Positions 7,427 to 49,403 of a stretch of DNA of 64,000 nucleotides are shown here, piece by piece (position 1 is the first letter of the stretch; every line of letters begins with the position of its first letter). The stretch comes from Candidatus Onthoplasma sp. Lineage in GTDB: Bacteria > Bacillota > Clostridia > Christensenellales > UBA1242. The notes beneath the pieces were generated by a model. That model saw only the letters and a list, made by a program, of their open reading frames with translations, searched no databases and was not told the origin of the DNA. Position numbers and translations under genes: made by a program. Where the stretch lies: contig JBGVOQ010000017.1 in the NCBI GenBank assembly GCA_045126575.1, forward strand, positions 26,555-90,554, written 5' to 3'.

Positions 7427-8407
7427 ATGAACCCCCAAATAAATAGATTGCTATCATCAGCAAAAAATATTGCCATTATTGGACACATTAATCCGGATGG
7501 AGATTGCTTTGGCTCTATTAGCGCTGTAAACGATTATATATCCACCAAACACGATTGCTTAATACATTGCTTTGCTCAATGCGAAACTATTGCAGAAGAA
7601 TTTAAACCATTTACTGAGGATATTAATTTTAATCCGCAACCTCTAGATAATTACGATTTATGTATATGCGTGGACGCTGCAGATATTGGCCGACTAGGAA
7701 AATATATGGACGTGTTTAACAACTCCAAAAACACTGTATGCATTGACCACCACGCCACTAATAAGGGTTTTGCAGATATTAATATTATCAACACAATTTC
7801 ATCTAACTGTGAAAATATCTACAACATGTTGCATGAAGATAATTTTGAAATAAGCAAAAAAACGGCTGGTAAATTGTTTGCCGGTATTGTGACCGATACC
7901 AACAACCTTTCAACCAATATGGTGACCGCCAATACATATAAGGCAGCAATGGACCTAATCAATAAAGGTATAAATTATTACAAAATTATCAAATTCTTTA
8001 TGGGCGGCAATAGCATGCCTCAATACAGATTGTTATCCATGGCTATGAACGGCGCTCAATTTTATAACAACAACACTATTATGGTAATGCGTATAACCAC
8101 CGACCAGTTAAATGCTGCGGGAGGAACTCAGGAAGATTTAAACCCAATTATCAACCAAGCATTTTGTATGAAACACGCAAAAGCGGCGCTACTAATAACA
8201 CCACGCAATGGTCAAGCCCATGTAAGTTTTAGAAGCCGTGGCGACATTGATGTTAGTGTGCTAGCCCAACACTTTGGCGGAGGCGGACACAAGCCGGCAG
8301 CAGCATTTACCAAACCAGAACTTTCTAGTGATGATTTAAATTTTATAATTAATAGCCTTTCTCAGCAAATAAATGCACTGCCTGAAGATAATGAAAGTTT
8401 GTTTTAA
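7427..8407 (+). CDS. nrnA: DHH/DHHA1 phosphoesterase, NrnA-type oligoribonuclease / pAp phosphatase
   Basis: IIGHINPDGDCFGS, IDHHATN (DHH motif) and GGGGH (DHHA1 motif). AGGAG RBS. Confidence 0.85.
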   Translation: MNPQINRLLSSAKNIAIIGHINPDGDCFGSISAVNDYISTKHDCLIHCFAQCETIAEEFKPFTEDINFNPQPLDNYDLCICVDAADIGRLGKYMDVFNNSKNTVCIDHHATNKGFADINIINTISSNCENIYNMLHEDNFEISKKTAGKLFAGIVTDTNNLSTNMVTANTYKAAMDLINKGINYYKIIKFFMGGNSMPQYRLLSMAMNGAQFYNNNTIMVMRITTDQLNAAGGTQEDLNPIINQAFCMKHAKAALLITPRNGQAHVSFRSRGDIDVSVLAQHFGGGGHKPAAAFTKPELSSDDLNFIINSLSQQINALPEDNESLF

Positions 8408-14326: not shown

Positions 14327-14355
14327 TTGACAACCTAATTAAAATGATATATAAT
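14327..14355 (+). promoter_or_regulatory. Sigma-A type promoter of tRNA-Arg(ACG)
   Basis: TTGACA (14327-14332), 17 nt, TATAAT (14350-14355). Confidence 0.6.
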
Positions 14356-14406: not shown

Positions 14407-14483
14407 GCGTCGTTAGCTCAGCTGGATAGAGCGTTGGTCTACGGAACCAAAGGCCAGGAGTTCGAATCTCTTACGACGCACCA
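14407..14483 (+). tRNA. tRNA-Arg (anticodon ACG), CCA encoded
   Basis: Cloverleaf folded by hand: acceptor GCGTCGT/ACGACGC, D arm GCTC/GAGC, anticodon arm TTGGT-CTACGGA-ACCAA, T arm AGGAG-TTCGAAT-CTCTT, then A-CCA. Confidence 0.95.
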
Positions 14484-14518: not shown

Positions 14519-14545
14519 TTTTATGTGCTGTTTATCTTTATTTGT

Positions 14546-14671
14546 AAGAGATTCGACCCATAAAGGGTTCGCCCTGTCGGTCGGACCGAAATCTTTGATT
14601 TCTCCCGCTTTGTGCTACAAACTTGCCACTGGCAACTTTGTTTAACGCAGTCGCCTCTTACGACGCACCAT
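14546..14671 (+). ncRNA. Candidate structured RNA/DNA module with tRNA-Arg-derived ends (family shared with 49073-49199)
   Basis: Three hairpins conserved with the Ser-locus copy, including compensatory changes. It ends in CTCTTACGACGCACCA and is followed by a terminator. No promoter of its own is evident. Confidence 0.4.
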
Positions 14672-14839
14672 ATAATAAGCTTAGTTAGTTCTAAGCTTTT
14701 TTTATTTTATGTACTGTTTATTTTTATTTGTAAGAGATTCGACCCATAAAGGGTTCGCCCTGTCGGTCGGACCGAAATCTTTGATTTCTCCCGCTTTGTG
14801 AAATAGTAAAAACTCCCTAATCAAATAGGGAGTTCTTTG

Positions 14840-16519
14840 TTACATTTCTTCCATTGTTTCAACACAAATTAAGTTAAATGCTTTAGATAGCACTTCTTTA
14901 ACCAAATTTAATAGTTGCAATTTTGCTTTAACCTGATGTAAGTTTTCGTCCAAAATTTTACACACAGTGTAGTACTTGTTAACCGTTTTGCACATTTCCA
15001 TACAATATTTTAGCACAACACTTGGGTCACGTTTATCAAGGGCAATTTTTAATGTATTTTCAAGATTGCAGCACATTTTGATTAATTCAAATGCTTGAAC
15101 TTGGTCTAGGCAATTATAGTCACATTGAACTTTGCTCAAATCCAAATCTTTAGCCTTACGCAATATACTCATAACACGTGTATAGGTGTATTGCATATAT
15201 GGTGCGGTTTCGCCCTCAAAACTAAACGCACGTTCGATATCAAAAATTGCATCCTTGTTACGTTCGATATTTAGTGCATTAAAACTTAACACACCTTTTG
15301 CAACCTTTAATGCAACATCTTTAGGGTTTTCGATACTAAATGTACGGTTTTTGATTACATCGTTGGCCTTATTTAACACGTAGTCCATCAAATCTACAAG
15401 TACCGCCTGTTTACCACGACGTGATGAAATCTTCCCATCTGGCAAACTAAATCTACCATAGGCAATATGTTCCAACCCACCACTAAATGGCATACCTGCA
15501 AGTTCTAGCACCTTAAAGAATTGTGCAAAGTGTAATTTTTGCTCGGTTCCTGTTAGATATAACATAATATCATATTTATAATCATTATATCTATCAATAG
15601 CGGCAGCAATATCACGAGTTGCATACAAGCTTGCTCCGTCACTACGCTTTACTAAACATGGTGGCATATCAAACTTGGATAAATCAACAACTGTAGCGCC
15701 TTGGCTAACTGTAAGCAATCCCTTGCTATCCAAAAATTTAATAACATTATCAAGTTCTGGCGCATAACTTGCTTCGCCTTTCCACGAATCAAAGTAAACA
15801 CCCAATATATCTAGTAAACGTTCAGCTTCCTTACGAGCAACATCAATAACTCGTTGATATATTGGATAAATTTCAGGGTCTTCATCTTCTATCTTTTTAA
15901 ATATATCACGTGCAAGCTGTTGAAGTTTTTCATCTTCCGCTTCGGCTGCACAGAATTTAACATAATATTCTTGTAATGCATCAATACCACGATCTTCAAT
16001 ATCCGCATCCGTTCCCCACATTTGAAGACCGGCAATAATTTTGCCATAAGGAGTACCATAATCGCCAATATAGTTAATTCGCACAACCTTATATCCAAAG
16101 TTTTCGAAAAGCCTTGCCAAACTTTCGCCTACAAAAATATTTTTTAGGTGCCCTATATGCATATACTTAGCAAGGTTAACCGAACAATAGTCAATACAAA
16201 CCACCTTATCGTTTGATTGACATACTGGTAATTTATAATTATTTAAAACATTTTTACTAACTTCACCCTTATTTAGGAAAAAGTTTACATATCCAGCCAC
16301 GCATTCAACTTTTTCAATATTTGTATTTTGAAGATTTAATACGCTAGCAATTTCTTCAGCAATGGCCATAGGAGATTTGCGCAACGTTTTAGCCAAAGCA
16401 AAACACGGTAAGCAAAAATCACCTTTGCTCGCATCAATACTATCAATAACTAGATTATTTAATTCGCCATAATCTTTTAACTGTGCTAAAACATTGTATA
16501 CTTCTTGTTTTAAATTCAT
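14840..16519 (-). CDS. argS: Arginine--tRNA ligase
   Basis: Class I HIGH variant (MHIGHLKN), KMSK-like ISSRRGK, and a C-terminal DALR anticodon-binding region ending in M. Confidence 0.95.
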   Translation of the reverse strand: MNLKQEVYNVLAQLKDYGELNNLVIDSIDASKGDFCLPCFALAKTLRKSPMAIAEEIASVLNLQNTNIEKVECVAGYVNFFLNKGEVSKNVLNNYKLPVCQSNDKVVCIDYCSVNLAKYMHIGHLKNIFVGESLARLFENFGYKVVRINYIGDYGTPYGKIIAGLQMWGTDADIEDRGIDALQEYYVKFCAAEAEDEKLQQLARDIFKKIEDEDPEIYPIYQRVIDVARKEAERLLDILGVYFDSWKGEASYAPELDNVIKFLDSKGLLTVSQGATVVDLSKFDMPPCLVKRSDGASLYATRDIAAAIDRYNDYKYDIMLYLTGTEQKLHFAQFFKVLELAGMPFSGGLEHIAYGRFSLPDGKISSRRGKQAVLVDLMDYVLNKANDVIKNRTFSIENPKDVALKVAKGVLSFNALNIERNKDAIFDIERAFSFEGETAPYMQYTYTRVMSILRKAKDLDLSKVQCDYNCLDQVQAFELIKMCCNLENTLKIALDKRDPSVVLKYCMEMCKTVNKYYTVCKILDENLHQVKAKLQLLNLVKEVLSKAFNLICVETMEEM

Positions 16520-25673: not shown

Positions 25674-25750
25674 GCGAGTGTAGCTCAACTGGATAGAGCA
25701 TCAGTCTTCGGAACTGAGGGTTGGGGATTCGAGCTCCTCCACTCGCACCA
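25674..25750 (+). tRNA. tRNA-Arg (anticodon TCG), CCA encoded
   Basis: Acceptor GCGAGTG/CACTCGC, D arm GCTC/GAGC, anticodon arm TCAGT-CTTCGGA-ACTGA, T arm GGGGA-TTCGAGC-TCCTC, then A-CCA. Confidence 0.9.
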
Positions 25751-44990: not shown

Positions 44991-46061
44991 TTAGTTTTTA
45001 GTCAATTCTTCCAAATCGCCCTGTTCGTATCCGCCATATACAAACAACTCATCAAAAACAGTTTTTAGATCACCTATAAGTTTTTGGATATATTCGTCAT
45101 TGTCCTTATTCCTTTTTATGTATTCTACAAGCCACTTGTTTTCACGTATAATTTTTAGCATTGTGACAATCTTGCTAAGCGGCTCCGTTTCAATATCAGC
45201 CCTATCATGGTGACTTACCGTAGGTTCGATTTTTTTGCCAAACACTATATTAACGTCGTACCCACCATGCGCCATCGAATTTCGTATATGCGCAATTTTA
45301 GCAAACACATTAGAATCTCGGTTAAACAATTTGTAGTAATCATTTTGCTCGTATGTCATTTGACTTACAAGCAATGCATAGTAGTTGATTAGCGCCCTGT
45401 TTTCTGGGTTTTTAAACCTTTCGTAGTGCTTTAACTTTGGGTTAAGGTAATTTTCTGCAAACCTAAGCATATCCGCCGCCAGCAAGAAATCCTTTACCTG
45501 CTCGCCGTGGCTACTTTTTACCTTATATGAAAATTGCTCAGTTGTAAGAAATGTGTACGGCATTGCCTTACGTTTAAGTTGTTGGCGGTTTATATCAAAC
45601 AATGCTTCCTTGGATATTATAATTGGCTCATCTACTATAAATTCTTTACGTTGTGGCTTTAATACAAAATTTAAACGCTTGGAATACACATCATAGTCAA
45701 TTTCAAAATTGCCATGCGCAAAACTATTGCGTATATCCTTTATTATTAAGTTGTGTGCCATGGTTGACGCTTGCTCATCTGTAAAATTTGCGTATTTAGG
45801 GTTTGATTTAATCATTTCCTTAAGCGCTTGCTCTCTATCGCTGGCTTCATACTCGATATCTGCAGTTCTATTTTCATGAACCATTGTTAACAATGTTGCC
45901 GCATACAAACAAAGTGCTCCAGCATCCATAGCCCACTCACGACAGTCTGCATCTAAATCCTTAAACATAACTTCGTTTTCCGATGTTGGAAAATGGTCAA
46001 TCATTACCCTTGCGCTCGCAAATGGCGAAATCCTAGCCGGCCGCATTATTCTAATATCCAT
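44991..46061 (-). CDS. Hypothetical 356-aa protein with two Rx4H (HEPN-type) motifs; predicted tandem-HEPN RNase
   Basis: DIRNSFAHGNF and HIRNSMAHGGY lie about 155 residues apart with similar downstream context. Start at ATG 46061 after GGAGG. The TTG at 46109 lies inside the -35 box of the gene's own promoter. Confidence 0.6.
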   Translation of the reverse strand: MDIRIMRPARISPFASARVMIDHFPTSENEVMFKDLDADCREWAMDAGALCLYAATLLTMVHENRTADIEYEASDREQALKEMIKSNPKYANFTDEQASTMAHNLIIKDIRNSFAHGNFEIDYDVYSKRLNFVLKPQRKEFIVDEPIIISKEALFDINRQQLKRKAMPYTFLTTEQFSYKVKSSHGEQVKDFLLAADMLRFAENYLNPKLKHYERFKNPENRALINYYALLVSQMTYEQNDYYKLFNRDSNVFAKIAHIRNSMAHGGYDVNIVFGKKIEPTVSHHDRADIETEPLSKIVTMLKIIRENKWLVEYIKRNKDNDEYIQKLIGDLKTVFDELFVYGGYEQGDLEELTKN

Positions 46062-46080
46062 ACAACCTCCACTACTTAAA

Positions 46081-46109
46081 ATTATATCACATACCTCTTC
46101 CAATTTCAA
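46081..46109 (-). promoter_or_regulatory. Sigma-A type promoter of the tandem-HEPN gene
   Basis: Minus strand TTGAAA (46109-46104), 17 nt ending in TG, TATAAT (46086-46081). Confidence 0.6.
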
Positions 46110-46467: not shown

Positions 46468-46523
46468 ATAAAAAACAACCCAATCAAAACACATGGTGTT
46501 CGGATTGGGTTGTGCTTGGCGGG
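46468..46523 (-). repeat. Left direct repeat of the tRNA-Ser islet (degenerate tRNA-Ser 3' tip plus post-tRNA hairpin)
   Basis: ATAAAAAACAACCCAATCAAAACACATGGTGTTCGGATTGGG..TTGGCGGG aligns with 49203-49258 at roughly 85 percent identity by eye. Confidence 0.7.
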
Positions 46524-46579
46524 AAGACCGTTATCCAATCCTAACACCAAAATATATATTGGTGCTAAGTGGATTAAAG

Positions 46580-47695
46580 TTATATCCAAATTTCATAATG
46601 GAAAGTCGAATCGGTAGTAGAATTTAAATACGCAATTGCTATAGCTAGACCCACGTTTGTTAGAGACATATTGGATAATATAGATTCATCCCACCATTTT
46701 GAGAATTCAAAAATTTTAGAATGATTATCTTGTATATTTTTTATAAAATCATCTTTTGAAACATTATCATTTATATATTTATTAAAAATAGATATATCTT
46801 CTTGTGTGATTTTATTTTTGATTTTATTAAATTGTCTTATGTCTATTAAAACCTTTTGATTGTTATCGTTTTTGAAATTAAATGAGATATTATATTTTTT
46901 CATGAGAATTTCAAGTTCTTCAGGAATATTAAATACAGATATGCCATTATTTATATGTTCATAATACTCAGAATACATAGAATCAATTAAATTAGAATTA
47001 ACTTTAATAGAAGATATTCTCGCACATTTTGTATATTCTAAATGCAAATAAACAGATTGTTTATATTCATTTTTTATTTCGGAGAACAAATCAATAAACT
47101 TTTCATATTTATTTAATAAGTCATCAAGATTTAAAGAATTTAAATGGACCTCTTTTAATATATACACTATACCTAACATTTTGAAATGGATTGGCAATAG
47201 TTTTGAAATGACTTCTGCCGACTCGTCTATTGATAATTCTAACATTGAGAGATTGTTTGTTTTTAATCTCATTGAAATTAATTCTGCCAATGTTTTGATT
47301 CCGTCGTTGTCATGAGTTTTAATTGCCGATGTTTGAATATTTTTTAAAAAGTAAATAAAATTTGGATCTCCTAGCAATTCATTAATCTTCTCTGATTGTA
47401 TCGTTTGCTCCTTTAAAACAATTCTTAGTTCGTCGGCTAAGAAATTGACTTTTTCCATTGCTTTGAGAGAAGCTTTTTCTATTATTAAAGATTCTCTTTC
47501 TGATAAGCATAAAGTACAAACTTTTATTAAATCATCAATATTAGGATTTTCAGTAATTTGAAAAATTTGATTAAATGTGTTTTCCATACATACTACTGTA
47601 TTCGTCTCATGATTTATATTATTACTATTTTCCGTTTTATTAATACTTTGGTCGTTATTATTACCCTTTATTTTTTGTTCATAACTATTATCCAT
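46580..47695 (-). CDS. Hypothetical 371-aa protein; from memory resembles the LPO_1073/Vpar_1526 family (unverified)
   Basis: Start taken at ATG 47695, which overlaps the stop of the upstream small ORF. N-rich N-terminus and helical body. C-terminal SLTNVGLAIAIAYLN....YEIWI tail. Confidence 0.6.
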   Translation of the reverse strand: MDNSYEQKIKGNNNDQSINKTENSNNINHETNTVVCMENTFNQIFQITENPNIDDLIKVCTLCLSERESLIIEKASLKAMEKVNFLADELRIVLKEQTIQSEKINELLGDPNFIYFLKNIQTSAIKTHDNDGIKTLAELISMRLKTNNLSMLELSIDESAEVISKLLPIHFKMLGIVYILKEVHLNSLNLDDLLNKYEKFIDLFSEIKNEYKQSVYLHLEYTKCARISSIKVNSNLIDSMYSEYYEHINNGISVFNIPEELEILMKKYNISFNFKNDNNQKVLIDIRQFNKIKNKITQEDISIFNKYINDNVSKDDFIKNIQDNHSKIFEFSKWWDESILSNMSLTNVGLAIAIAYLNSTTDSTFHYEIWI

Positions 47696-47843
47696 TGTTA
47701 ATGTCTCCAATTTGTTGTTTATTGTTATTTCCTTTAGCTTTTTGTTTAATTTTTAAACTGTATGTTTTTGTGAAAAACCCACCTATGAAACCTAATACAG
47801 AACTTACTAAACCAATTATTAAATTCACTAACCAATCTGGCAT
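47688..47843 (-). CDS. Small single-TM peptide (51 aa), below the ORF-track cutoff and translationally coupled to the 371-aa gene
   Basis: My own translation: MPDWLVNLIIGLVSSVLGFIGGFFTKTYSLKIKQKAKGNNNKQQIGDINNG. AAGGAGG RBS at about 47851-47857. It overlaps the downstream ATG by 8 nt (ATGGATAA). Confidence 0.55.
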   Translation of the reverse strand: MPDWLVNLIIGLVSSVLGFIGGFFTKTYSLKIKQKAKGNNNKQQIGDINNG

Positions 47844-47910
47844 ATCTTTAGTCCTCCTTATAATTAAAGTAAGTATAGCACATATTTCTTAAAATTGTAT
47901 ATATTCTGAC

Positions 47911-47941
47911 AAAAAAGAGAAGAAGTTTTTTACTTCTTCTC
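47911..47941 (-). terminator. Terminator closing the non-coding stretch downstream of the NDT-like gene
   Basis: Minus strand GAGAAGAAG-TAAAAAA-CTTCTTCTC followed by TTTTTT. Confidence 0.6.
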
Positions 47942-48255
47942 GTGGGTTTTATTGATTGGATTGCAAATGAGTGTAGACTTCATTTGCTGATAGGTTAGAA
48001 AAGTTGCCGTTAGTTTCGGCAAAGTTCTTTAAGTCAGTTGCAAGAATAAAAGCAATTCTCTTTATTTGTTTTGACTTAATTCTGTTTTGCCTTGCCTTAA
48101 TAATTTGGGGAGCGATTCAAAATGCATCTCGGGGTATGTTCAACTGAACCACCAAAAACCAACTATTTTGTAGTGGTTTTTAGCGTTGAAATTTCAATTT
48201 TGAGTCCGCTCCTTATCCTGCTCCCTAAAATTTAATGACAATTTATGTCGTTTTG

Positions 48256-48762
48256 TTATTTTTCAAAAGAAAAATCCGGTTTATATTTATGGTATTTATC
48301 AAACCATTCACGACTATTCCACATTTCATTTTCCATTATAAGAATTTCGCACAATCTTTCTGGTGAACATATATTAAATTTTTCGGTAATTAAACTGGAA
48401 ATAAGTTCATCTTGTGGTTGTTCTTGAAAATAGACTTCTTGTCCTTTTGCTATAAGATATCCTAGTTCAAACATTGCAGTTCCGCCAATATAACCATTGC
48501 TATTACAGCAATAAACAACATCGGAAGCAAGTAACGCCTTTAAATAATCTTTTTCTAGTTCTCTTGGTGATTGAGATTTATCTGTATCTAATAAAACAAA
48601 TGAGACATCTTTTGAACCTGAAATTGTTGTTGATTTAGGAACCAAAACTTTAAATCCTTTATTTAAAAATATTTCTTTTGCTCTCTGAATATCCTCCATT
48701 TGTTTTCTGAAAGAGCCAATTATTGAAATTGTTTTATATTGTTGTCCATTAAAAGTTTTCAT
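48256..48762 (-). CDS. Nucleoside 2-deoxyribosyltransferase-like fold protein (168 aa)
   Basis: N-terminal ISIIGSFRK and C-terminal NGYIGGTAMFELGYLIAKGQEVY match the DxGTxxExGyAxxxgKPV-type motif of the NDT/Rcl superfamily. Start at ATG 48762 after GAGG. Promoter TTGAAA-17-TATTAT at 48808-48780. Confidence 0.55.
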   Translation of the reverse strand: MKTFNGQQYKTISIIGSFRKQMEDIQRAKEIFLNKGFKVLVPKSTTISGSKDVSFVLLDTDKSQSPRELEKDYLKALLASDVVYCCNSNGYIGGTAMFELGYLIAKGQEVYFQEQPQDELISSLITEKFNICSPERLCEILIMENEMWNSREWFDKYHKYKPDFSFEK

Positions 48763-49038
48763 ATAATAACCTCGTAAGTATAATATCATAATATATAAAT
48801 TTTTTCAATACCAATTCTAAAATTTGTCTAATGTTTTGTATAATATTTTTCTAACAAATTTCATTAGACACGAAAAAAAGTGTGATTTTTCTGTTAGACA
48901 TTTTGTTAGACATCATACATTAGTGCCAAAAACCGTTGATGTGAATGTAATTTAATGAAAAGTGAAGAATGAAAAATGAAGAATTAGAAAATCATAAACA
49001 AAACCTTAACTTTTCATTATTAATTAGTCATTTATCAT

Positions 49039-49062
49039 TAAAAAACTCTGCTGTTAAGCAGA
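49039..49062 (-). terminator. Terminator immediately after the Ser-locus structured module
   Basis: Minus strand CTCTGC-TTAACA-GCAGAG followed by TTTTTT. Confidence 0.6.
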
Positions 49063-49072
49063 GCGATTTTTT

Positions 49073-49199
49073 ATGGCGGAGAGTTAGAGGCGACTGCGTT
49101 AAGAAAAGTTGCCAGTGGCAAGTTTTTAGCATAAAGCGGGAGCAACTTGTTGCGGTCCGGGTCGACAGACCGAACCCTTTGTGTGTCGAATCCCGCCCT
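49073..49199 (-). ncRNA. Candidate structured RNA/DNA module with tRNA-Ser-derived ends (same family as 14546-14671)
   Basis: Minus strand TTAGGGCGGGATTCGAC...AACGCAGTCGCCTCTAACTCTCCGCCA. Same three hairpins as the Arg copy. The last 14 nt are identical to the tRNA-Ser 3' end including CCA. Confidence 0.4.
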
Positions 49200-49202
49200 A
49201 AA

Positions 49203-49258
49203 ATAAAAAATAAACCCAATCAAAACACATGGTGTTCGATTTAGGTTTTGATTGGCGG
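49203..49258 (-). repeat. Right direct repeat of the islet (genuine tRNA-Ser 3' tip plus downstream hairpin)
   Basis: Aligns with 46468-46523. Confidence 0.7.
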
Positions 49259-49339
49259 AGAGTTAGGGATTCGAACCCCAGGATGCTTGCACATCAACGG
49301 TTTTCAAGACCGCCGCTTTCGACCACTCAGCCAACTCTC
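49252..49339 (-). tRNA. tRNA-Ser (anticodon TGA), long variable arm, CCA encoded
   Basis: Minus strand GGAGAGT-TG-GCTGAGTGGTCGAAAGC..GGTCTTGAAAACC..variable arm..TGGGG-TTCGAAT-CCCTA-ACTCTCC-G-CCA (88 nt). Confidence 0.93.
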
Positions 49340-49374
49340 CATATATTAAACTATGTTACATTTGCAACAAGTAT

Positions 49375-49403
49375 ATTATATATTATTTAAAAGGCTATGT
49401 CAA
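49375..49403 (-). promoter_or_regulatory. Sigma-A type promoter of tRNA-Ser
   Basis: Minus strand TTGACA (49403-49398), 17 nt, TATAAT (49380-49375). Confidence 0.6.

Follow-up and report, generated by a model that had tools for sequence, protein, structure and literature searches.

A scaffold with tRNA-matched ends and a conserved RNA-type fold behind tRNA genes of Christensenellales-like Clostridia

In a 64,000-nucleotide stretch of a Candidatus Onthoplasma sp. genome (contig JBGVOQ010000017.1 of assembly GCA_045126575.1, positions 26,555 to 90,554; hereafter the window), the gene for tRNA-Ser(UGA) is followed on the minus strand by a module in which a conserved scaffold is framed by sequence matching the 3' end of that tRNA. 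Our analysis identifies this module as a structured element and candidate non-coding RNA, with a conserved, strand-specific fold and compensatory changes in its helices. Sequence comparisons further indicate that it is one member of a small, undescribed family, in which the scaffold lies between two direct copies of a tRNA 3' segment. The reading we favour, tentatively and with slightly less than even confidence, is that of a structured RNA element tied to single tRNA genes, which would be made by read-through and mimic the acceptor end of its tRNA.

Read on the minus strand, the module begins TTAGGG-CGGG-ATTCGAC (49201-49185), a sequence that, as a first-pass annotation of the window had reported, equals tRNA-Ser TCGAATCCCTAA in reverse complement except for four additional bases. 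What that annotation took for a 4-nt insertion corresponds to an irregular joint between the 5' piece and a G triplet of the scaffold. The module ends in CTAACTCTCCGCCA (49087-49074), and with the tRNA placed by ARAGORN this was confirmed as the last 14 nt of tRNA-Ser(tga); a search for this 14-mer with up to two mismatches allowed gave exactly two occurrences in the window, where 0.07 were expected. The copied unit comprises 16 nt, tRNA positions 61-76, with exact identity over 14 nt and one mismatch in the Ser copy (CTCTA vs CCCTA). The order described earlier, namely tRNA, hairpin, module, duplicated 3' end, terminator and low-GC islet, was recovered, as was the CTCTGC/GCAGAG hairpin with its T-run (h2, Table 1). 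The hairpin between tRNA and module (h1) is homologous to the tRNA-Ser trailer of module-free genomes (L007, L045; L numbers denote the loci and contigs compared), and h2 is homologous to sequence directly after the tRNA-Ser CCA in L006 and after the module in L020. The scaffold measures ~110 nt, and the module has a GC content of 0.50 compared to 0.35 for the genome.

The same scaffold recurs behind other tRNA genes. A covariance model (CM R1) built from eleven copies matched three places only in the window, the Ser copy, a copy behind tRNA-Arg(ACG) and a truncated Arg copy, bearing out the proposal that the Ser and Arg copies have a scaffold in common. Long exact blocks are shared by the two, with 0 expected by chance, and no CM match was found behind the third tRNA of the window, tRNA-Arg(TCG) at 25674. 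Across many genomes, seventeen non-truncated matches had E-values of 1e-22 to 1e-42, and the association of one scaffold with different tRNA species extends beyond Ser and Arg to tRNA-Lys(CUU) and a fourth tRNA end (Table 1). The carriers are uncultured Christensenellales-like Clostridia. Copies were found by pattern scans, which gave five real loci and two chance matches (L014, L018) among genomes and four loci among metagenomes, and by look-ups of orthologous loci; both scan patterns were strict, and the family is certainly under-sampled. Representative genomes carry one or two pattern-matching copies, always behind a tRNA, and the same micro-architecture, with nothing between terminator and scaffold, was seen at at least 13 loci and at least four tRNAs.

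Searches for relatives outside this family were negative. Against Rfam 15, including its tmRNA (transfer-messenger RNA), tRNA-like, omega RNA/HEARO, ribozyme, T-box and group I/II intron families, only tRNAs reached the gathering score, and permissive Rfam searches of 48900-49400 and of L022/L023 gave only chance-level matches elsewhere. Exact-pattern scans of viral contigs and blastn searches of phage and plasmid collections returned no relative, and we found no described counterpart in the literature on RNA-guided or tRNA-linked elements.

For a comparison of the ends, all copies were split at conserved anchors into four parts. In every copy the last 16 nt (part d) are tRNA positions 61-76, comprising the T-stem 3' strand, the acceptor 3' strand, the discriminator base and CCA. 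Part b, GGTTCG, corresponds to the last bases of the T-stem 5' strand with the T-loop's TTCG, and directly behind it begins the conserved domain S, which runs to ...ACGCAGTCGC. Since S lies between GGTTCG and the copy of 61-76, it occupies the place of T-loop bases 58-60. Upstream of part b stands an inverted T-arm-like block, GGGATTCGA(A)CCC, which reads GGCTCGAACC at Lys-type loci, where the T-loop of the tRNA is TTCGAGC. The 5' piece consists of 4-8 locus-specific bases that form the strict Watson-Crick complement of tRNA positions 61/64-67/70. At sites of a G.U pair in the tRNA stem, the 5' piece pairs as A-U or C-G, indicating that it complements the copied 3' strand and is not a copy of the tRNA 5' strands. 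Its joint to the scaffold G triplet is irregular, with 1-4 bases (GGC, GAC, CAC, GGT, TA or T). At its other edge, the scaffold terminates in CC, which overlaps with the C-rich strand of the T-stem. When each 5' piece was matched to its own 3' piece and to those of other loci, 4 of 5040 permutations reached the observed value, so that the tailoring of the scaffold ends to each tRNA, first described for two copies, stands in the larger set, with one loss taken up below. The strict complement together with the irregular joint makes this customisation look like local templated copying, not like a designed guide. Programmable specificity for tRNA ends, or an RNA that acts on its cognate tRNA, both proposed in the first-pass annotation, may nevertheless apply.

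Pairing of the 5' piece with the 3' copy gives helix P1, in which the T-stem and 2-5 inner acceptor pairs are recreated; pairs 1:72-3:70 are without a 5' partner, and the T-loop is replaced. The tail after P1 is single-stranded and consists of the rest of the acceptor 3' strand and NCCA. A second arrangement, Form B, occurs in L020 (6490-6623) and L043 (9854-9986), where a genuine tRNA-Ser 3' half, ...CCTGGGGTTCG, is followed by S and then by CCCTAAC...CCA. Here GGGGTTCG is the genuine T-arm of the tRNA-Ser 3' half, which starts in the anticodon loop, and these copies, in which a true tRNA-Ser T-stem closes the scaffold, show the latter to be an insertion domain of the T-loop. The Form B scaffold may have originated by insertion, by conversion or by a deletion between GGGTTCG repeats. 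In L043 the Form B copy is intact and the standard (Form A) copy, at 7538-7673, is mutated in conserved blocks. Both Form B copies are located at the far end of the islet, before a DUF378 gene.

RNAalifold and pair counts support four helices, P1, P2b, P3 and P4. In P1, the 5' piece and the G triplet pair with the T-stem/acceptor copy, and G[G/A]G:C[C/U]C pairs covary. P2b (4 bp, loop UGUC) occurs with the stems GGUC/GACC, GCUC/GAGC, CUCC/GGAG and CCGG/CCGG, and P3 (5-8 bp) as GCAAC/GUUGC, as GAAAU/AUUUC and in longer forms, with both sides changed in 3/4 pairs. P4 comprises 18 pairs, is 96% paired and shows an A-U to C-G switch as well as conserved U.G at two positions, the latter implying that it folds only on the tRNA-sense strand. 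Compensatory changes are found in P2b, P3 and the extension of P4. Overall, 94.4% of cells were paired compared to 36-57% with the partners slid, 12 pairs change on both sides, and 0/500 shuffles reached any observed measure. The GGUUCG segment has two mutually exclusive partners, the inverted T-arm block (P0) or CCGGACC (P2a), neither of which covaries. The P4 hairpin, TTGCC-ACT-GGCAA with a U-run (49109-49121, minus strand; 14623-14635, plus strand), is terminator-like, with an A-run flank as in bidirectional terminators.

At four orthologous Ser loci, mean identity was 68% in the leader, 83% in the trailer, 82.5% in the 5' block, 94.5% in the scaffold and 97.5% in the tRNA. Scaffold identity falls as the hosts diverge (100%, 94%, 91%), suggesting vertical descent under purifying selection and not a recent sweep, and loop-length changes between copies are not multiples of three, which points to a non-coding sequence. 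The module is always oriented like the tRNA. A promoter scan found no promoter for the module itself; the terminator scan did not call h1, which makes read-through into the module plausible. Both module-bearing tRNA genes of the window, tRNA-Ser and tRNA-Arg(ACG), are monocistronic and have perfect-consensus TTGACA-17-TATAAT promoters (49375-49403 and 14327-14355), and the tRNA-Arg(ACG) gene is convergent with argS, encoding arginyl-tRNA synthetase.

Table 1. Features of the tRNA-Ser locus in the window and copies of the module elsewhere.
Feature	Coordinates	Strand	Evidence or remark
Promoter of tRNA-Ser, perfect TTGACA-17-TATAAT	49403-49375	-	Promoter scan
tRNA-Ser(UGA), CCA encoded	49253-49340	-	ARAGORN; Rfam tRNA 58.6 bits
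h1, native tRNA-Ser trailer: AU-rich hairpin, 18-nt loop, then T-run	49202-49252	-	Alignment with L007, L011, L020, L045
Module: locus-specific 5' complement, conserved scaffold, copy of tRNA 61-76	49074-49201	-	CM R1 148.6 bits, E=1e-39; alignments
5' piece (a5') TTAGGG, Watson-Crick complement of CCCTAA (tRNA 61-66); pairs with 49089-49083 as closing helix P1	49196-49201	-	
CGGG: irregular joint and the scaffold's own G triplet	49195-49192	-	
Inverted T-arm-like block GGGATTCGAC, loop, GGGTTCG (counterpart of T-stem 5' strand plus TTCG); potential hairpin P0	49171-49194	-	
P2b hairpin GGTC-TGTC-GACC	49160-49171	-	Stem covaries across copies
P3 hairpin GCAAC-AA-GTTGC	49142-49153	-	Length and sequence vary between copies
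P4 long hairpin GCTTTATGCTAAAAACTTGCC-ACT-GGCAACTTTTCTTAACGCAGTCGC	49090-49138	-	RNAalifold, pair counts
Part d, copy of tRNA-Ser 61-76: T-stem 3' strand, acceptor 3' strand, G73, CCA	49074-49089	-	Exact over 49087-49074
h2, bidirectional terminator hairpin CTCTGC/GCAGAG and T-run	49045-49064	both	Terminator scan; assigned to the islet end, not the module
Islet: decayed integrative element, 2.55 kb, integrase gone, GC 26-29%	46528-49073	-	Open reading frames 48256-48789, 46580-47710
Islet far end: degenerate core TCTTCCCGCCA (46527-46517) and second h1 copy (46516-46471)	46471-46527	-	
CM match, Ser copy	49070-49205	-	CM R1 148.6 bits
CM match, Arg copy	14537-14674	+	CM R1 141.8 bits
CM match, truncated Arg copy	14723-14868	+	CM R1 52.5 bits
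Sister module behind tRNA-Arg(ACG) (14407-14483)	14544-14670	+	GTAAGAG pairs with CTCTTAC; end is CTCTTACGACGCACCA
Truncated second tandem Arg unit	14730-14800	+	Breaks off at CCCGCTTTGTG, adjoining the argS terminator
Copies behind tRNA-Ser(UGA)			L011, L016, L019, L020, L043
Copies behind tRNA-Arg(ACG)			L015, L017, L021, L025-L027
Copies behind tRNA-Lys(CUU)			L022, L023
Copies at a fourth tRNA end			L024, array of at least three 158-nt units

The duplication extends beyond the tRNA end itself. In L011, L015, L021, L022, L024 and the Arg locus of the window, a further copy of the trailer and terminator of the local tRNA, reaching to the T-run, comes after the second CCA, and the Ser locus of the window shows the same trailer duplication once the islet is removed. 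The trailers are host-specific, near-identical between the copies within a locus and different between species. Together with the native trailer, these duplicated flanks define a unit in which the scaffold lies between two D repeats (D - scaffold - D), each D comprising tRNA 61-76, trailer and terminator. The length of the duplication ranges from 16 to ~75 nt, the terminal repeats differ per locus, the duplicated flank stops where the primary transcript of the tRNA ends, and the modules sit 8-12 nt past the terminator T-run of single, strongly promoted tRNA genes. Such a unit is easily lost by recombination between the D repeats, which fits its patchy presence among relatives; within one species, the unit number is 0.6 in L025 and 1.6 in L026 and the window.

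In the favoured reading, transcription would start at the tRNA promoter and reach the module by read-through, in the direction of the tRNA. Within the transcript, P1 would reproduce the T-stem and the inner acceptor pairs, and the tail would present a true acceptor 3' strand with NCCA; given this tRNA-like tail and the same trailer behind it, the 3' end should be trimmed or recognised like that of the cognate tRNA. Domain S would supply a constant functional part, and the RNA may serve as a decoy, competitor or processing signal that mimics the tRNA acceptor end. New copies would be rare products of copying events in which the local tRNA locus serves as template for both ends; selection would then keep them despite deletion-prone flanking direct repeats. 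If this is correct, the family would add a class of tRNA-linked structured RNAs in which the tail of one specific tRNA is built around a constant domain, and it would point to a partner that acts on tRNA 3' ends, in processing, quality control, toxin action or defence.

Known tRNA mimics, including tmRNA, the tRNA-like domain of YrlA and viral tRNA-like structures, likewise possess a T-stem/acceptor helix and an NCCA end. The module differs from them in having no 5' acceptor strand for pairs 1-3, in the replacement of the T-loop by a ~85-nt domain of three hairpins, in escaping detection by ARAGORN or Rfam and in being re-tailored to each neighbouring tRNA.

Several observations weigh against this interpretation. 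The 5' complement is lost in L011, and parts drift in other copies; the Form A copy of L043 and the copy in L027 carry mutations in conserved blocks, which is evidence against strict constraint. The module is absent from L045/46, L007 and L006 at the Ser locus and from L029/32 and L034/35 at the Arg locus. Single-sequence folding is unremarkable (z = -1.07 for the Ser copy and -2.72 for the Arg copy), and the sequences are few and closely related, which limits the number of covariation events. Lastly, the P4 hairpin with its U-run could stop transcripts before the tRNA-derived tail.

The main competitor, which we consider possible but distinctly less probable than the acceptor-end mimic, is a non-autonomous mobile element that is moved in trans and retargets to different tRNA genes, its ends either acting as guides that pair with both strands of the tRNA T-arm/acceptor region or being copied from the target at insertion as a reverse transcriptase or replication fork jumps between templates. 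This would explain why one scaffold is found at at least four tRNA species with matched ends and why scaffold subtypes are not tied to tRNA identity: the Arg copy of L015 has the Ser-type scaffold of its own genome (L019), indicating that scaffolds moved or underwent conversion from one locus to another, with ends that remained specific to each locus. Tandem arrays and copy-number polymorphism (L024; L025 vs L026), the patchy distribution and the end of the duplicated flank at the end of the tRNA primary transcript also speak for it, as do the strict 5' complement, the irregular 1-4-base joints and the CC overlap, all of the microhomology type, and the scaffold inside the T-arm of a displaced tRNA-Ser 3' half in Form B. 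Against it stand the one or two copies per representative genome, the divergence of the scaffold along with its hosts, as in vertical descent, the mutual pairing of the two putative guides, and the lack of an empty/filled pair with otherwise identical flanks that would show a fresh insertion. Reading the window's 51 open reading frames by eye, we recognised no recombinase, transposase or reverse transcriptase, and most copies have none beside them: neighbouring frames in L015, L017 and L021-L024, read by eye, look housekeeping-like with no recombinase or reverse transcriptase, and precomputed Pfam labels on the Arg-locus contigs L025-L042 include no recombinase, the rest of those genomes not having been searched. 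The neighbours of the Arg and Lys copies are housekeeping genes, among them those for ArgRS, a polysaccharide deacetylase, FtsK, ProRS and LeuRS. The mobile-element and acceptor-end-mimic readings can be combined, with rare copying followed by maintenance.

More adventurous versions are rather unlikely in our estimate. In one of these, the module can be turned on different tRNA genes, either as a mobile element based on RNA or by guiding a recombinase or reverse transcriptase encoded in trans; this would be a self-retargeting system, specific for tRNA ends and so far undescribed. In the other, it belongs to a family of RNAs impersonating acceptor ends. If re-aimable, its 5' segment may pair with one strand of the T-arm/acceptor region and its 3' segment with the other, or both ends may be copied from the primary transcript of the target at insertion; if an impersonator, each RNA may mimic the acceptor end of one tRNA as a decoy for enzymes or toxins directed at tRNA ends. 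We give a slightly lower probability still to the element being categorically new, and rate it as falling within the broad kinds of tRNA-mimicking structured RNAs or tRNA-end-specific elements. Were the module mobile, it would show how an element can be redirected in nature to new tRNA genes by short ends that are base-paired or templated, which would be of interest for programmable DNA insertion.

Comparison with guided and folded elements brings out both likenesses and differences. The bridge (seek) RNAs of IS110/IS1111 elements are structured and carry target-matching loops (Nature 2024, PMC11208160). Like the module, they are folded non-coding sequences of 130-180 nt in which short variable segments match both target strands and the scaffold is constant. 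In the module, however, the target-matching bases are terminal and mutually pairing instead of lying in two internal loops; its internal loops are constant or unrelated to the flanks, with no donor-binding loop, and its flanks show a duplication of 16-75 nt in place of a dinucleotide core. No DEDD recombinase adjoins it among open reading frames read by eye or labelled by Pfam, and membership in this group is not supported. The omega RNAs of TnpB/IscB share the arrangement of a conserved scaffold followed by a ~16 nt flank-derived 3' end. The module differs in lacking an adjacent TnpB/IscB gene, IS200/IS605 ends and an Rfam omega-RNA/HEARO match, its 3' 16 nt duplicate the upstream tRNA end instead of a unique flank, and a complementary 5' end is present.

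In integron attC sites and CTX-phage attP, imperfect inverted repeats fold one strand and rebuild a double-stranded target with the rest looped out, a principle that the module resembles; the interiors of attC sites are not conserved, whereas that of the module is highly conserved, no integron integrase or cassette array accompanies it, and its strand-specific G.U pairs point to RNA. The class C group II introns of bacteria insert, like the module, just after the T-run of an intrinsic terminator, but the module is ~110 nt long and has no domain V/VI, no open reading frame for a reverse transcriptase and no Rfam intron match. Miniature inverted-repeat and palindrome-associated transposable elements (MITE/PATE) differ in that the module has few copies, always behind a tRNA, with per-locus terminal repeats and a duplication that is not short and fixed.

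At the tRNA-Ser locus, later events have to be separated from the module. The first-pass annotation had placed the module at the tRNA-proximal edge of the islet, a view that did not hold. The displaced core and h1 copy at 46527-46471 indicate the original order tRNA - D - scaffold - D - DUF378 gene, as in L011, where the module is present without the islet; in L006, which has no module, the corresponding islet end directly adjoins the tRNA CCA. Taken together, these three observations show that the module is older than, and independent of, the islet, which was inserted later into the module's duplicated tRNA end (left attachment site 49087-49074). Comparison of orthologous tRNA-Ser loci revealed variation in module presence, and did not bear out a linkage between module and islet. 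Just upstream of the core at 46527, GGATTGGATAACGG resembles a diverged T-arm brought by the inserted element.

At least five TTAGACA/ATGTCTAA repeats, in both orientations, lie at ~48790-48930 in the islet and look like arm-type integrase sites; in the same-species contigs L002/L004, TTAGACA-type repeats flank a tyrosine integrase. In L002 (9325-12391) they flank a 464-aa tyrosine integrase, an HTH_17 excisionase-like gene and a DNA methylase. The tRNA-Ser CCA has at least four different continuations in related genomes, and this site is a recombination hot spot. In the same-species contigs L003 and L005 another element may lie between tRNA and module, the contigs ending too early to show the module. 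In L001, an independent assembly of the same strain, the contig ends exactly at the tRNA-Ser CCA (5845), consistent with population heterogeneity.

These events give some footing to a DNA-level explanation, in which the duplicated tRNA end is a spare attachment site, a landing site that spares the real gene; we judge it improbable. In the window and in L016, L019, L020 and L043, an islet-type element bracketed by core repeats sits at the module core and not at the tRNA, and in relatives a tyrosine integrase element and large serine recombinases are found at this hot spot. Nevertheless, all insertions at the module core may stem from one event, and the benefit would be small, since integration at tRNA genes normally restores the gene. 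For phage mv4, the attB at tRNA-Ser is a 21-bp segment from the T-loop to the acceptor (bioRxiv 10.1101/2023.11.06.565760), and thus includes T-loop bases absent from the module. A landing site would also leave unexplained the strand-specific fold with compensatory changes and the copies at the Arg and Lys loci, around which there is no mobile DNA.

Less probable again is an attachment scar, that is, an attP arm and core remnant from which cargo and integrase were deleted, as in a cis-mobilizable element (CIME). As at the attL/attR sites of tyrosine integrases, the last bases of the tRNA are duplicated right behind the gene, and the direct repeat brackets foreign-looking sequence; real integrase elements use tRNA-Ser, and the indel between L006 and the window is bounded exactly by the core repeat. 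The islet itself is an ordinary remnant of this kind, to which phage mv4 at tRNA-Ser is the characterised analogue, with the module's copy as one end (49087-49074 vs 46527-46517). The module differs: between the cores at 49266-49253 and 49087-49074 there is only trailer and scaffold (~180 nt) and no gene, as at the Arg and Lys loci, and the TTAGACA repeats lie beyond h2 in the islet, with none inside the scaffold. Its repeat runs through the host-specific trailer and terminator, unexpected for a foreign attP, and has an inverted complement at the other end. Furthermore, the scaffold is constant across tRNAs and conserved nearly as strongly as the tRNA, with RNA-type covariation, the micro-architecture recurs too widely, and viral, phage and plasmid collections hold no homologue. 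The earlier argument that a single integrase's att arm would not behave in this way is thereby strengthened, most copies lying among housekeeping genes with no recombinase nearby. This matters for annotation, where a tRNA 3' end found in duplicate is routinely taken for an integrase scar at the edge of an island; here the repeat belongs to another and older element, with the island inside it.

Neutral local duplication or chance end matching is very improbable: tandem duplications beside tRNA genes are common and the L027 copy is decaying, but the shared blocks, the CM E-values, the permutation result, and the conservation and covariation all speak against it.

Further candidates were tried and dropped. 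A GGAUUCGAC-like motif recalls the 5' region of tmRNA and is explained as an inverted T-loop (TTCGAA palindrome), and a tmRNA fragment received no ARAGORN or Rfam support; a tmRNA-like tag frame, GGC-AAC-UUU, is broken by 1-nt indels between copies. Small peptide frames at 49028-49219 and 49071-49223 were discarded on account of the non-coding indel pattern. An IS91-type insertion at GTTC, or an IS200/IS605 insertion after TTCG, fails on the missing T-loop bases 58-60, the duplicated flank and the absence of a transposase. An integron attC was dropped since the RYYYAAC-like CCCTAAC is peculiar to tRNA-Ser, a group IIC intron has the wrong size and domains, and a casposon-type 14-16 bp target duplication does not agree with the absence of terminal inverted repeats and a duplication that is often 60-75 nt.

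Near the islet, a 372-aa protein (44991-46109, minus strand) has weak HEPN matches (RiboL-PSP / pEK499_p136) below the Pfam cut-offs; this HEPN-like protein was considered as a partner and dropped, as modules occur without the islet. Within the islet, a 177-aa protein (48256-48789, minus strand) has a weak nucleoside 2-deoxyribosyltransferase-like match, also below the Pfam cut-offs.

At tRNA-Arg(ACG), a mirror-image architecture was seen in L038 (2560-2915), L039 and L040, where a duplicated tRNA 5' half, up to the anticodon loop, and a GC-richer insert of ~190 nt, without an Rfam match, precede the complete gene. At tRNA-Ser, a large serine recombinase with Resolvase, Recombinase and Zn-ribbon domains (L020, 3263-4795) ends just before CACTCCGCCA followed by trailer and module; with no tRNA body upstream of that end, this points to a third type of element that splits the tRNA-Ser end. 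A similar recombinase lies ~900 nt downstream of tRNA-Ser in L007-L010. Finally, in L002 (8745-9061) and also in L004, the host tRNA-Ser breaks off after its 5' half, in the anticodon loop; next come 190 nt containing ATGTCTAAT repeats, and after these a complete tRNA-Ser of a different sequence type. This points to a second element family, with its crossover in the anticodon loop and a tRNA-Ser of its own.

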